Virus record (IMG/VR): IMGVR_UViG_3300029476_000074
Source: a virus
Taxonomy: Duplodnaviria > Heunggongvirae > Uroviricota > Caudoviricetes
Reading direction: 5' to 3' (one strand)
Length of the DNA stretch: 5,906 nucleotides
The translations under genes and the position numbers were made by a program. Of the stretch, positions 497 through 5,906 are shown piece by piece. The stretch's first letter is position 1, and each line of letters opens with the position of its first letter. Under the pieces are notes generated by a model. It did not search any database and was not told the origin of the DNA. It saw only the letters and a program-made list of their open reading frames with translations.

Positions 497-1194
497 TGCA
501 GGATATCCGGCAGGAAACACTGAATGAATGCACCCGTGCGGAGCAGTCGGCCAGCGTGGTGCTCTGGGAAATCGATCTGACAGAGGTCGGTGGTGAACGC
601 TATTTTTTCTGTAATGAGCAGAACGAAAAAGGTGAGCCGGTCACCTGGCAGGGGCGGCAGTATCTGGCGTATCCCATTCAGGGGAGTGGTTTTGAACTGA
701 ATGGCAAAGGCACCAGTACGCGCCCCACGCTGGCAGTCTCTAACCTGTACGGCATGGTCACCGGGATGGTGGAAGATCTGCAGAGTCTGGTCGGCGGAAC
801 GGTGGTCAGGCGTAAGGTTTATGCCCGTTTTCTGGATGCGGTGAACTTCGTCAACGGAAACAGCGACGCCGATCCGGAGCAGGAGGTGATTAGCCGCTGG
901 CGCATCGAGCAGTGCAGCGAATTGAGCGCGGTCAGTGCCTCCTTTGTACTGTCCACGCCGACTGAAACGGATGGTGCCGTTTTTCCGGGGCGCATTATGC
1001 TGGCTAATACCTGCACCTGGATCTATCGCGGTGATGAGTGCGGTTATAACGGTCCGGCGGTCGCGGATGAATATGACCAGCCGACGTCCGATATCACGAA
1101 GGATAAATGCAGCAAATGCCTGAGCGGCTGTAAGTTTCGCAATAACGTCGGCAACTTTGGCGGCTTCCTTTCCATTAACAAACTTTCGCAGTAA
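496..1194 (+). CDS. L: Minor tail protein L (tail tip assembly, Fe-S cluster-binding), 232 aa
   Basis: ORF 496..1194 encodes MQDIRQETLNECTRAEQSASVVLWEIDL...FLSINKLSQ, 232 aa, the length of lambda gpL. C-terminal Cys cluster (CTW...DEC...DKCSKC...SGC) at nt 1012-1131. Start coupled to the M stop. Confidence 0.95.
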   Translation: MQDIRQETLNECTRAEQSASVVLWEIDLTEVGGERYFFCNEQNEKGEPVTWQGRQYLAYPIQGSGFELNGKGTSTRPTLAVSNLYGMVTGMVEDLQSLVGGTVVRRKVYARFLDAVNFVNGNSDADPEQEVISRWRIEQCSELSAVSASFVLSTPTETDGAVFPGRIMLANTCTWIYRGDECGYNGPAVADEYDQPTSDITKDKCSKCLSGCKFRNNVGNFGGFLSINKLSQ

Positions 1195-1199
1195 ATCCC

Positions 1200-1943
1200 A
1201 TGACAGAGACAGAATCAGCGATTCTGGCGCACGCCCGACGATGTGCGCCAGCGGAGTCGTGCGGCTTCGTGGTGAGAACGCCGGAGGGGGAAAGATATTT
1301 TCCCTGCGTGAATATCTCCGGTGAGTCGGAGGAGTATTTCCGGATGTCTCCGGAAGACTGGCTGCAGGCAGAAATGCAGGGTGAGATTGTGGCGCTGGTC
1401 CACAGCCACCCCGGTGGTCTGCCCTGGCTGAGTGAGGCCGACCGGCGGCTGCAGGTGCAGAGTGATTTGCCGTGGTGGCTGGTCTGCCGGGGGGCGATTC
1501 ATAAGTTCCGCTGTGTGCCGCATCTCACCGGGCGGCGCTTTGAGCACGGGGTGACGGACTGTTACACGCTGTTCCGGGACGCTTACCATCTGGCGGGGAT
1601 TGAGATGCCGGACTTTCATCGTGAGGATGACTGGTGGCGTAACGGCCAGAATCTCTATCTTGATAATCTGGAGGCCACAGGGCTGTATCAGGTGCCGTTG
1701 TCAGCGGCGCAGCCGGGCGATGTGCTGCTGTGCTGCTTTGGTTCATCGGTGCCGAATCATGCCGCTATTTACTGTGGTGACGGCGAGCTGCTGCACCATA
1801 TTCCTGAACAACTGAGTAAACGAGAGAGGTATACCGACAAATGGCAGCGACGCACACACTCCCTCTGGCGTCACCGGGCATGGCGCGCATCTGCCTTTAC
1901 GGGGATTTACAACGATTTGGCCGCCGCATCGACCTTCGTGTGA
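1200..1943 (+). CDS. K: Tail tip assembly protein K (JAB/MPN + NlpC/P60 two-domain protein), 247 aa as the long ORF
   Basis: ORF 1200..1943. JAMM-like motif HSHPGGLPWLSEAD (HxHx7SxxD) at nt 1401-1442. NlpC/P60-like catalytic Cys in GVTDCYTLF (Cys codon 1560-1562) with a downstream His in PNHAAIY. The C-terminal 199 aa starting at MSPEDW (ATG 1344) correspond to the classical lambda K annotation. ATG 1200 lies 5 nt after the L stop, consistent with coupling. Confidence 0.93.
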   Translation: MTETESAILAHARRCAPAESCGFVVRTPEGERYFPCVNISGESEEYFRMSPEDWLQAEMQGEIVALVHSHPGGLPWLSEADRRLQVQSDLPWWLVCRGAIHKFRCVPHLTGRRFEHGVTDCYTLFRDAYHLAGIEMPDFHREDDWWRNGQNLYLDNLEATGLYQVPLSAAQPGDVLLCCFGSSVPNHAAIYCGDGELLHHIPEQLSKRERYTDKWQRRTHSLWRHRAWRASAFTGIYNDLAAASTFV

Positions 1944-2512
1944 AAACGGGGGCTGAAGCCATCCGCGCACTGGCCACACAGCTCCCGGTGTTTCGTCAGA
2001 AACTGAGCGACGGCTGGTATCAGGTACGGATTGCCGGGCGGGACGTCAGCACGTCCGGGTTAACGGCGCAGTTACATGAGACTCTGCCTGATGGCGCTGT
2101 GATTCATATTGTTCCCAGAGTCGCCGGGGCCAAGTCAGGTGGCGTATTCCAGATTGTCCTGGGGGCTGCCGCCATTGCCGGATCATTCTTTACCGCCGGA
2201 GCCACCCTTGCAGCATGGGGGGCAGCCATTGGGGCCGGTGGTATGACCGGCATCCTGTTTTCTCTCGGTGCCAGTATGGTGCTCGGTGGTGTGGCGCAGA
2301 TGCTGGCACCGAAAGCCAGAACTCCCCGTACACAGACAACGGATAACGGCAAACAGAACACCTATTTCTCCTCACTGGATAACATGGTTGCCCAGGGCAA
2401 TGTTCTGCCTGTTCTGTACGGTGAAATGCGCGTGGGGTCACGCGTGGTTTCTCAGGAGATCAGCACGGCAGATGAAGGGGATGGTGGTCAGGTTGTGGTA
2501 ATTGGGCGGTAA
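1841..2512 (+). CDS. I: Tail tip assembly protein I (ubiquitin-like N-terminal domain, Gly/Ala-rich hydrophobic C-terminal region), 223 aa
   Basis: ORF 1841..2512 encodes MAATHTLPLASPGMARICLYGDLQRFGRRIDLRV...GGQVVVIGR, 223 aa, the length of lambda gpI. Overlaps the 3' end of K by 103 nt in a different frame, the arrangement I recall for lambda K/I. Confidence 0.93.
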   Translation: MAATHTLPLASPGMARICLYGDLQRFGRRIDLRVKTGAEAIRALATQLPVFRQKLSDGWYQVRIAGRDVSTSGLTAQLHETLPDGAVIHIVPRVAGAKSGGVFQIVLGAAAIAGSFFTAGATLAAWGAAIGAGGMTGILFSLGASMVLGGVAQMLAPKARTPRTQTTDNGKQNTYFSSLDNMVAQGNVLPVLYGEMRVGSRVVSQEISTADEGDGGQVVVIGR

Positions 2513-2585
2513 TATTATTTTACTCATGTTCTAACTAATTTAATATTTATATCGAACACTGATAATTATTCTATTGGTTAGCTAT
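2513..2585 (+). promoter_or_regulatory. Putative sigma70-type promoter region for the moron gene (exact -35/-10 uncertain)
   Basis: Very AT-rich 70 bp directly upstream of the lipoprotein ORF with several -10-like hexamers (TAATAT 2541-2546, GATAAT 2561-2566) and weak -35-like elements (TTTACT 2518-2523, TTTAAT 2539-2544). No single convincing consensus pair, so low confidence. Confidence 0.25.
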
Positions 2586-2924
2586 ATGAACAAAACGATT
2601 TTATTCTGCACGATTATTGCCTTAACAGGATGTAAATCTTTGGATTACGTAAAATCCGGAAAACCTGTAATGGAAGGTAATTCATTAAAAAATATTGATG
2701 AATTGTCAGGCTGCATATCCAGACAATGGGCTGGTAATGGAACACCTATAACATCCCTTCCTATTGAGAATGGGGTAAGCCTTTTAGTTCCACAGGCTAT
2801 GGGGGGATATGATGTTGTGCTTGATATCAAAAAAGCAGGAAATGGCAGTAGTTTTACTCTTTATGAACGTGTACCAGCATTAACGCCAAAAATTTTTGCT
2901 GATAGTGTTAATGCATGTAAATAA
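2586..2924 (+). CDS. Predicted lipoprotein of unknown function (phage moron gene), about 112 aa precursor
   Basis: ORF in the track starts at TTG 2574; I prefer ATG 2586, giving MNKTILFCTIIALTGC|KSLDYVKSGKPVMEG... This has a basic n-region, a hydrophobic h-region and a lipobox L-T-G-C with Cys at residue 16, the signal peptidase II signature. Stop TAA 2922-2924. No strong Shine-Dalgarno. Codon usage is AT-rich and unlike the neighbouring genes. I do not recognise the protein family. Confidence 0.7.
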   Translation: MNKTILFCTIIALTGCKSLDYVKSGKPVMEGNSLKNIDELSGCISRQWAGNGTPITSLPIENGVSLLVPQAMGGYDVVLDIKKAGNGSSFTLYERVPALTPKIFADSVNACK

Positions 2925-2948
2925 TAGTTAATCCTGCCGTAACTCATG

Positions 2949-2976
2949 AGCCGCCTTTTGGGCGGCTTTGTTGTTT
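2949..2976 (+). terminator. Rho-independent terminator downstream of the moron gene
   Basis: Inverted repeat AGCCGCC (2949-2955) / GGCGGCT (2961-2967) with a 5-nt loop TTTTG, followed by the T-rich tract TTGTTGTTT (2968-2976). Lies 25 nt after the ORF stop and 15 nt before the J start. Confidence 0.6.
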
Positions 2977-2990
2977 ATGGAGTGTGAGGA

Positions 2991-5906
2991 ATGGGTAAAG
3001 GAAGCAGTAAGGGGCATACCCCGCGCGAAGCGAAGGACAACCTGAAGTCCACGCAGCTGCTGAGTGTGATCGATGCCATCAGCGAAGGGCCGATTGAAGG
3101 TCCGGTGGATGGATTAAAAAGCGTGCTGCTGAACAGTACGCCGGTGCTGGATAGCGAAGGGAATACCAACATCGCCGGTGTCACGGTGGTGTTCCGGGCA
3201 GGTGAGCAGGAGCAGACACCGCCGGAGGGATTTGAATCCTCCGGCTCCGAGACGGTGCTGGGTACGGAAGTGAAATATGACACGCCGATCACCCGGACCA
3301 TCACGTCGGCAAACATTGACCGTCTGCGTTTTACTTTCGGCGTGCAGGCACTGGTGGAAACCACCTCAAAGGGTGACCGGAATCCGTCGGAAGTCCGCCT
3401 GCTGGTTCAGATACAACGTAACGGTGGCTGGGTGACGGAAAAAGACATCACCATTAAGGGCAAAACCACGTCGCAGTATCTGGCCTCGGTGGTGGTGGAT
3501 AACCTGCCGCCGCGCCCGTTTAATATCCGGATGCGCAGGATGACGCCGGACAGCACCACAGACCAGTTGCAGAACAAAACGCTCTGGTCGTCATACACCG
3601 AAATCATCGATGTGAAACAGTGCTACCCGAACACGGCACTGGTCGGCGTGCAGGTGGACTCGGAGCAGTTCGGCAGCCAGCAGGTGAGCCGTAATTATCA
3701 TCTTCGCGGGCGCATTCTGCAGGTGCCGTCGAACTATAACCCGCAGACGCGGCAATACAGCGGTATCTGGGACGGAACGTTTAAGCCAGCATACAGCAAC
3801 AACATGGCCTGGTGTCTGTGGGATATGCTGACCCATCCGCGCTACGGCATGGGGAAGCGTCTCGGTGCGGCGGATGTGGACAAATGGGCGCTGTATGTCA
3901 TCGGCCAGAATTGCGACCAGTCGGTGCCGGATGGCTTTGGTGGCACGGAGCCGCGCATCACCTGTAACGCTTACCTGACCACGCAGCGTAAGGCGTGGGA
4001 TGTTCTCAGCGATTTCTGCTCGGCGATGCGCTGTATGCCGGTATGGAACGGGCAGATGCTGACGTTCGTGCAGGACCGACCGTCGGATAAGGTGTGGACC
4101 TATAACCGCAGTAATGTGGTGATGCCGGATGATGGCGCGCCGTTCCGCTACAGCTTCAGCGCCCTGAAAGACCGCCATAATGCCGTTGAGGTGAACTGGA
4201 TTGACCCGGATAACGGCTGGGAGACGGCAACAGAGCTTGTGGAGGATACGCAGGCCATTCTCCGTTACGGTCGTAACGTCACGAAGATGGATGCCTTTGG
4301 CTGTACCAGCCGGGGGCAGGCGCACCGCGCCGGGCTGTGGCTGATTAAAACGGAACTGCTGGAAACGCAGACCGTGGACTTCAGCGTGGGCGCAGAAGGG
4401 CTTCGCCATGTACCGGGCGATGTCATTGAAATCTGCGATGATGACTATGCGGGGATCAGCATCGGTGGTCGCGTACTGGCGGTGAACAGCCAGACCCGGA
4501 CGCTGACGCTCGACCGTGAAATCACGCTGCCATCCTCCGGCACCACGCTGATAAGCCTGGTTGACGGTGAGGGTAATCCGGTCAGTGTGGAGGTCCAGTC
4601 CGTCACCGACGGCGTGAAGGTGAAAGTGAGCCGTGTTCCTGACGGCGTTGCTGAATACAGCGTGTGGGGGCTGAAGCTGCCGACGCTGCGCCAGCGCCTG
4701 TTCCGCTGCGTGAGTATCCGTGAGAACGATGACGGCACGTATGCCATCACCGCCGTGCAGCATGTACCGGAGAAAGAAGCCATCGTGGATAACGGGGCGC
4801 ACTTTGACGGTGACCAGAGCGGCACGGTGAATGGTGTCACGCCGCCAGCGGTGCAGCACCTGACCGCAGAAGTCACCGCAGACAGTGGGGAATATCAGGT
4901 GCTGGCGCGCTGGGACACGCCGAAGGTGGTGAAGGGCGTGAGATTCCTGCTTCGCCTGACCGTGGCAGCGGATGACGGCAGTGAGCGGCTGGTCAGCACG
5001 GCCCGGACGACGGAAACCACATACCGCTTCACGCAACTGGCGCTGGGGAACTACAGGCTGACAGTCCGGGCGGTAAATGCCCGGGGGCAGCAGGGCGATC
5101 CGGCGTCGGTATCGTTCCGGATTGCCGCACCGGCAGCACCGTCGCGGATTGAGCTGACGCCGGGCTATTTTCAGATAACCGCCACGCCGCATCTTGCGGT
5201 TTATGATCCGACGGTACAGTTTGAGTTCTGGTTCTCGGAAAAGCGGATTGCGGATATCAGGCAGGTTGAAACCACAGCACGCTATCTTGGCACGGCGCTG
5301 TACTGGATAGCCGCCAGTATCAATATCAAACCGGGCCATGATTATTATTTTTACATCCGCAGTGTGAACACCGTTGGCAAATCGGCATTTGTGGAGGCTG
5401 TTGGCCAGCCGAGTGATGATGCATCCGGCTATCTGAATTTTTTCAAAGGAGAGATAGGGAAAACCCATCTGGCTCAGGAGTTGTGGACGCAGATTGATAA
5501 CGGTCAGCTTGCGCCTGACCTGGCTGAAATCAGGACGTCCATTACGGGTGTCAGCAATGAAATCACGCAGACCGTCAATAAGAAACTGGAAGACCAGAGT
5601 GCAGCGATCCAGCAGATACAGAAGGTTCAGGTTGATACAAATAATAACCTGAACAGCATGTGGGCTGTGAAGCTGCAGCAGATGCAGGACGGACGCCTTT
5701 ATATCGCGGGTATTGGTGCCGGTATTGAGAACACCCCTGACGGCATGCAGAGTCAGGTGCTGCTGGCGGCGGACAGGATTGCGATGATTAATCCTGCGAA
5801 TGGCAACACAAAGCCGATGTTTGTTGGGCAGGGCGATCAGATATTCATGAACGAAGTGTTCCTGAAATATCTGACGGCTCCCACCATTACCAGCGGCGGT
5901 AATCCT
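2991..5906 (+). CDS. J: Host specificity protein J / central tail fibre (tail tip), N-terminal ~972 aa, 3'-truncated by window edge
   Basis: ATG 2991 preceded by GGAG (2979-2982). The frame stays open to the last base of the window (2916 nt, 972 codons), which is why it is missing from the ORF track. Translation begins [53 protein letters not shown]... and ends ...[30 protein letters not shown], matching lambda gpJ by recollection over most of its length. Confidence 0.95.

Follow-up and report, generated by a model that had tools for sequence, protein, structure and literature searches.

A probable recombinational exchange of the shaft module in the central tail fibre gene J of a lambdoid phage

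Gene J at the end of the virus sequence IMGVR_UViG_3300029476_000074 follows lambda closely for most of its length and then departs from it, which raises the questions of what the departing block encodes and whether it was imported or changed in place. We analyzed a stretch of 5,906 nucleotides (the window), which carries the lambdoid tail-tip genes M (167-496), L (496-1194), K (1200-1943) and I (1841-2512), assigned from the open reading frame list and comparison with lambda, followed by a small low-GC insert of 480 nt and then J, all on the + strand. The whole window was 96-97% identical to the best-matching complete E. coli genomes, and an exact 49-mer spanning the insert-J junction had no match among species-representative genomes. 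Blastn against lambda gave identities of 95.6% over 67-2508, 94.5% over 2960-5487 and 73.6% over 5657-5906, and no match over 5488-5656. J, which encodes the central tail fibre or tip attachment protein, is read in frame 3, starts with the ATG at 2991, runs to 5906 and was identified by Pfam and by its position after M-L-K-I. It is truncated by the window end, so that 972 of ~1160 codons are present; full-length relatives continue for ~190 residues beyond aa 972 and carry several receptor-binding domain types. A Pfam search of the 972-residue product returned Ig_J, Phage-tail_3, FNIII-A_GpJ, Ig_J_second and Phage_Tail_Tip (PF24801, PF13550, PF24421, PF24489, PF09327), each above its curated cut-off. 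The domain set of the gpJ family (FNIII-A, Phage-tail_3 hub, two Ig/FNIII domains and tail tip fibre), the M-L-K-I-J order of lambda and 97.5% amino acid identity to lambda over aa 1-800 place the window J in that family.

Protein alignment with lambda gpJ showed how sharply identity changes along J. Over nt 2991-5390, 780 of 800 residues were identical, compared to 60 of 145 alignment columns (41.4%; the columns include a 28-residue gap in lambda) over nt 5391-5825 and 23 of 27 residues (85%) over nt 5826-5906. Nucleotide identity to lambda within nt 5391-5825 was 61.5%. In 30-residue windows, identity stayed at 93-100% up to aa 810, fell to 43%, 13%, 33% and 53%, and returned to 73%. These results confirm that the divergence of this block from lambda is real and far beyond chance. 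The preliminary description had stated that J is nearly identical to lambda gpJ up to about codon 815, departs strongly and then reconverges; all of this held, the peptide strings it quoted were all found in the J translation, and the windowed alignment that it proposed showed that identity across 5440-5820 is far from uniform. The edges of the block were located by a breakpoint analysis, also proposed there and performed as a maximum chi-square scan, which placed the left break at nt 5399 (chi2 = 386), with mismatches to lambda of 4.6% on the left and 34% on the right; mismatches became denser from nt 5390. The block start previously set at 5440 therefore lies ~40 nt downstream of the break, whereas the end set at 5820 agrees with the right edge at ~5825, where nucleotide identity to lambda recovers gradually from 63-68% to 77-94%.

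The block had also been described as more AT-rich than the rest of J. Its GC content was indeed lower (0.508) than that of J codons 1-736 (0.600), but the drop starts at ~nt 5199, within FNIII-2 and ~240 nt upstream of the block, and the lowest-GC 384-nt window of J begins at 5301, again upstream of it. The stretch at nt 5199-5438 has a GC content of 0.496, yet is ~95% identical to lambda, and the homologous stretch of lambda is equally low (0.503-0.508). Because the drop begins upstream of the block and is the same in lambda, low GC is a common property of this J region and not a mark of import. It was thus ruled out as a marker of foreign origin, and the block lacks the deviant base composition that can characterize a mosaic cassette.

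Synonymous divergence gave a different picture. We calculated dS between the window J and lambda J for each segment by the Nei-Gojobori method. The results showed dS values of 0.14-0.24 over aa 1-800, at least 1.6 or saturated over aa 801-945, and 0.32 over aa 946-972, with an abrupt change at both edges as expected of a mosaic cassette. Because this roughly tenfold rise is confined to the block, the common ancestor of the block and its lambda counterpart is much older than that of the flanks, which is the signature of recombination. The block also has incongruent neighbours. Phages cdtI and mEp460 have nearly the same receptor-binding domain (96% DNA identity), yet over 5450-5850 the window state was present at 120 of 123 informative sites in cdtI and the lambda state at 115 of 117 in mEp460; the BP-4795-like J of PhiR12_2 contains a window-like patch at 5631-5760; and short cassettes of the lambda type occur on diverged backbones. 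In cdtI the transition from lambda-like to window-like sequence lies at ~5450, compared to 5399 in the window, and the differing junctions in the window, cdtI and PhiR12_2 show that several independent exchange events have taken place. That the tail genes of lambdoid phages are mosaic is textbook knowledge. Lambdoid phages and prophages are documented to undergo relaxed homologous recombination with each other (PMC3945230). The dS jump, the incongruent modules and the phage-specific junctions support the earlier proposal that an internal module preceding the receptor-binding C-terminus was swapped, and show that the block was exchanged by recombination as an imported module rather than produced by fast local evolution.

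The opposing explanation is that nothing was exchanged: the block would descend from a lambda-like ancestor and have evolved rapidly where it stands, under selection that was diversifying or relaxed. J is a host-interaction protein, a class in which diversifying selection is common, and the recovery of identity on the right side is gradual, with no sharp edge, both of which would suit such a history. However, saturation of synonymous sites is confined to the block, pN is below pS in all J segments compared with lambda, giving no sign of positive selection, and phages that differ in other regions and carry various receptor-binding domains have the block at 96-100% identity. We consider evolution in place very improbable. 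An assembly or sequencing chimera has a practically negligible probability, since a near-identical block lies in frame within an intact J in thousands of complete genomes and in 53 phage records. Exchange, in the form that we hold to be highly probable, means that two allelic cassettes, both widespread, are moved by recombination and that nt 5391-5825 represent the long one, with a 66-residue linker. Homologous recombination would transfer such a cassette from one lambdoid J gene to another, with the conserved end of FNIII-2 as the likely left homology arm and the conserved island marked by AKNADISG as the likely right arm, and the cassette would travel independently of the downstream receptor-binding domain.

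The features of this region were then placed on the window, all on the + strand. FNIII-2, the second Ig/FNIII domain (aa 716-818, nt 5136-5444), was recognized by Pfam as PF24489 Ig_J_second (E = 1.6e-39). The left junction zone of the module (nt 5391-5449) overlaps its end and extends from the onset of denser mismatches, through the chi-square breakpoint, to the position of the switch in cdtI. The exchanged module itself (aa 801-945, nt 5391-5825; 41% amino acid identity to lambda) comprises a predicted alpha-helical shaft and a beta-prism top. The N-terminal part of the shaft (aa 806-835, nt 5406-5495) aligns to lambda aa 806-835 with 53% identity, and the C-terminal part (aa 864-889, nt 5580-5657) aligns to lambda aa 836-861 with 22% identity, a stretch that contains the lambda helices (841-861) which become beta-sheet when LamB is bound; further alignments paired this part with lambda 838-861. 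Between them, pairwise and MAFFT alignments placed 28 extra residues, or four heptads, that are absent from lambda (aa 836-863, nt 5496-5579), the placement of this gap being ambiguous within ~aa 830-866, where HMMER favours a slightly different register. The beta-prism top, or central straight fibre (aa 890-945, nt 5658-5825), is a divergent allele with 61% amino acid identity to lambda and a dS of 1.9, and PF09327 Phage_Tail_Tip covers aa 872-968. The conserved island, the putative right homology arm, starts at aa 946 and occupies the rest of the window (aa 946-972, nt 5826-5906; 85% amino acid and 88% nucleotide identity to lambda, dS 0.32). In full-length relatives it reaches ~aa 1000, after which a divergent receptor-binding domain follows; aa 961-990 of ev017 and GU2018 are 90-97% identical to lambda before that domain diverges.

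The solved lambda structures provide the reference for the shaft. In lambda gpJ, residues 809-861 form a bundle of three helices that keeps the FNIII-2 units joined; upon LamB binding this shaft flips by ~180 degrees, with remodelling of its upper helix (809-840) and conversion of residues 841-861 from helix to beta-sheet atop the prism (PMC11101478). Between the FNIII domains and its tip, the closed lambda fibre is 29.7 nm long (PMC11101478). The flanks of the window block aligned to lambda gpJ 784-835 and 838-944 in the solved structures (E = 3e-56), and the shaft lies, as in lambda, between FNIII-2 and the beta-prism, with aa 819-871 uncovered by Pfam between Ig_J_second and Phage_Tail_Tip. 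Homology to lambda thus showed the block to be the predicted alpha-helical shaft and beta-prism top of gpJ. Period-3.5 hydrophobic power reached 28-51 in 28-residue windows over aa 836-891, which is comparable to lambda 829-863, and the zone of high power spanned aa 836-891 in the window J compared to roughly 822-863 in lambda. This power was not significant against whole-segment shuffles, as 0.07 of the shuffles reached it (aa 844-897). The coiled-coil-like character noted in the preliminary description is therefore supported by homology to the solved three-helix shaft and by the position of the period-3.5 peak, the height of that peak being only modestly above that of shuffled sequence. AlphaFold2 monomer prediction from the single sequence gave a long helix at aa 841-898 with low confidence (pLDDT <=65), while prediction from a 26-sequence alignment modelled FNIII-2 well and gave strands at aa 859-877 with pLDDT <50; the two models disagree on helix or strands, and in neither is the confidence over the shaft high enough to settle its fold. 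A PDB search with the 28-residue extra segment alone found no relative, the only match, to a coronavirus spike heptad-repeat core, being non-significant (E = 3.5).

Shaft length was compared across J relatives as the linker from the end of FNIII-2 to the MWAVK motif, with 1.84 billion cluster representatives searched. The results showed exactly two linker classes among close J relatives, one of 38 aa that includes lambda (16 representatives) and one of 66 aa that includes the window (24 representatives), the difference of 28 residues corresponding to four heptads; distant fibre relatives had linkers of 92 to >1000 aa. The short cassette was 83-100% identical to lambda even where the backbone FNIII-2 was only 51-72% identical, and this near-constancy on diverged backbones shows that the short cassette has spread horizontally. 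The long class was more diverse (shaft identity 33-77%), diverged roughly in step with its backbone, and shared a conserved core, NEITQTV-K-LEDQSA-IQQIQ-VQ. Within the extra 28 residues, pN was 0.19 and pS 0.51 against BP-4795 (pN/pS ~0.37), which indicates that they are under purifying selection. Internal tandem duplication was ruled out as their origin, since the best self-alignment score (19) was below the shuffle mean (22.3). No paper describing the two shaft lengths was found in the literature searched, the coverage of which was incomplete. The four-heptad shaft dimorphism is the one modestly new point of this analysis.

The direction of the length change can be read in two ways, and we lean slightly towards the long shaft being older, the short shaft of lambda having lost four heptads by an in-frame deletion and then spread horizontally. 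The window form would then be the normal one and lambda the odd one. The long class is diverse and tracks its backbone, while the short class is near-invariant on very different backbones; the long form was found in more E. coli genomes than the lambda type (3595 vs 2599); and the linkers of distant relatives are longer still. T1 gp33 matches window aa 834-959 at equal length (126 vs 127 residues), and the F2-pyocin fibre gives a gapless alignment that starts at window aa 859 and takes in only the last few of the extra residues. Against this, the T1 gp33 and F2-pyocin alignments are weak (E = 4e-6 and 0.016), and both classes are old, with synonymous sites saturated between them. In this unrooted comparison, the short shaft of lambda may be the derived state, and the direction implied in the preliminary description is possibly reversed. 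A further proposal concerns what the long shaft does, namely that it is a fold-switching variant whose extra heptads are metamorphic, as in F-type pyocins, and add beta-prism layers on triggering. [quoted passage not shown] Window aa 859-913 align to F2 pyocin fibre 1054-1108 (E = 0.016), a strong period-2 hydrophobic signal is present at aa 871-905, and aa 859-877 are helical in the single-sequence AlphaFold2 model and form strands in the alignment-based one. However, both of these models are below pLDDT 70 at aa 859-877, and the F7 pyocin paper states that lambda is without an extensive switch (PMC12874032). The pyocin strand motif SxSxxMxxLxS (PMC12874032) was not enriched in the window shaft, with one full match, at aa 871, compared to 0.55 expected from shuffles, and lambda had none. 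Fold switching by the extra heptads is a doubtful reading, and we rate it as rather unlikely.

By homology to lambda, the shaft of the imported long cassette would clamp the three FNIII-2 domains in the closed tail tip and would relay receptor binding upward through its flip and partial refolding. The 28 extra helical residues would add ~4 nm to the closed fibre (28 x 0.15 nm), and the added length could alter the stand-off distance or the energetics of triggering. An altered fibre geometry, which the preliminary description had suggested, can reasonably be inferred. Its second suggestion, a link between the module and host range, received no support, because the same shaft type is paired with at least three receptor-binding domain types, so that the shaft assorts independently of the receptor-binding domain. 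A more far-reaching possibility, which we offer tentatively and judge improbable, is that the 38/66 dimorphism is functionally maintained in the relay and refolding element, with metamorphic extra heptads that alter stand-off or trigger energy and are shuffled independently of receptor specificity. If shaft length does affect triggering or reach, the shaft would be a second tunable module for lambdoid tail engineering, separate from the receptor-binding domain, and the conserved arms at ~nt 5280-5390 and from 5826 onward would be natural splice points for cassette swaps.

The distribution of the block was assessed in phage records and complete E. coli genomes. A total of 53 phage records contained block 5440-5906 at 95-99% identity, among them ev017, mEp460_4F5, cdtI and several Stx2a phages, and the block was 96-100% identical in DNA to ev017, phage 21, GU2018 and cdtI. 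The phage mEp460_4F5 is a recombinant derivative of mEp460 that carries the long allele, whereas the original mEp460 has the lambda-type shaft; classical phage 21 and most E. coli prophages of this type also have the long allele. Among 5426 complete E. coli genomes, nt 5440-5700 were covered to at least 80% in 3595, mostly at >=95% identity, and the genome of SK1144 was 100% identical over this stretch; the lambda-type stretch was covered in 2599 of the 5426. The long-shaft form is thus present in roughly two thirds of the complete E. coli genomes, and lambda is an unrepresentative reference for this region of J.

Among known systems close to it, the window J resembles lambda gpJ (PDB 8IYK, 8XCI, 8XCJ; Ge and Wang 2024, PMC11101478), with which it shares the gene, the place between FNIII-2 and the receptor-binding domain and a similar hydrophobic periodicity. 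It differs from lambda in its linker (66 vs 38 residues), in the identity of its shaft (22-53%) and beta-prism top (61%), and in the 28 extra residues, which are without a solved counterpart. The F-type pyocin (F2, F7) fibres and T1 gp33 have the same order of FNIII, trimeric helical shaft and beta-prism as gpJ (PMC13455828, PMC12874032, PMC11945409) and weak sequence homology to the window at the junction of shaft and prism; the shafts of these fibres are far longer, with a 163-residue switching coiled coil in F7 and linkers of hundreds of residues. The J of the BP-4795 or Stx-phage type has the 66-residue shaft and the NEITQTV-K-LEDQSA-IQQIQ-VQ core of the window; its block is ~70% identical in DNA, and its backbone differs along the entire length (53-88% nucleotide identity). 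Phage 21 (UMO75436.1), ev017, cdtI and many E. coli prophages carry essentially the allele of the window in a J of 1159-1165 aa; compared to the phage 21-type group the window has an extra lipoprotein gene between I and J, and compared to cdtI it differs at both junctions. The J block is thus a clean case of textbook mosaicism, real, well explained and ordinary. No new type of system is involved, and the long-shaft J is a very common and already sequenced allele, that of the phage 21 type.

Analysis of the region between I and J, the central tail fibre gene, revealed a low-GC insert (2513-2990; GC 0.28-0.41) that is present in none of lambda, phage 21 and ev017. The insert contained an ORF with an ATG at 2586 and its end at 2924, whose product begins with MNKTILFCTIIALTGC, a lipobox-containing lipoprotein signal, and a terminator-like hairpin was located 3' of this ORF (2948-2968). 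The predicted product matched PHROG 914, a family of unknown function (E = 8e-33), and no family in Pfam; the gene was also found in E. coli GU2018_CL13, where it is labelled 'hypothetical'. The insert looks like a moron, and its product could, purely by inference, be a Cor/Llp-like receptor-blocking exclusion lipoprotein.

To characterize the base composition of J, GC content was followed along the gene. The results showed a fall from about 0.60 to about 0.50 at 5199-5440, within the second FNIII domain and well upstream of the divergent block, the exchanged shaft and prism-top module, and GC remained low beyond this point. The same step was observed at the same position in lambda J, indicating that the 3' third of J differs in composition in both alleles. 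Additionally, a 625-codon antisense ORF was detected on the minus strand inside J (3591-5468), and its end coincides with the GC drop. High GC in the sense frame most likely gives rise to this ORF as a side effect; the Pfam matches of J lie on the plus strand, and pN is far below pS in J.

In PhiR12_2, a phage whose BP-4795-like J carries a window-like patch, J (546-3410) was only 954 aa long and ended just past the shaft and prism-top block, where the conserved island begins. Separate genes annotated as tail fibre and hypothetical followed downstream, and the distal fibre and receptor-binding part of this phage may be separately encoded or replaced.

We searched species-representative genomes with a 42-mer from the extra segment, the 28 shaft residues of J (aa 836-863) absent from lambda. 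The sole exact match was at 200-241 of JAGZNZ010000056.1, a 1350-bp scaffold from a metagenome bin labelled Collinsella sp., which is almost certainly a misbinned E. coli prophage fragment.

Finally, AlphaFold2 gave two different low-confidence predictions for J aa 859-877 (nt 5565-5621): a helix when run on the single sequence, and beta-strands when supplied with a 26-sequence alignment. Differing prediction behaviour with shallow versus deep alignments has been reported for fold-switching pyocin fibres (PMC12874032). The helix/strand disagreement between our models recalls that behaviour, at a strength too weak for interpretation.
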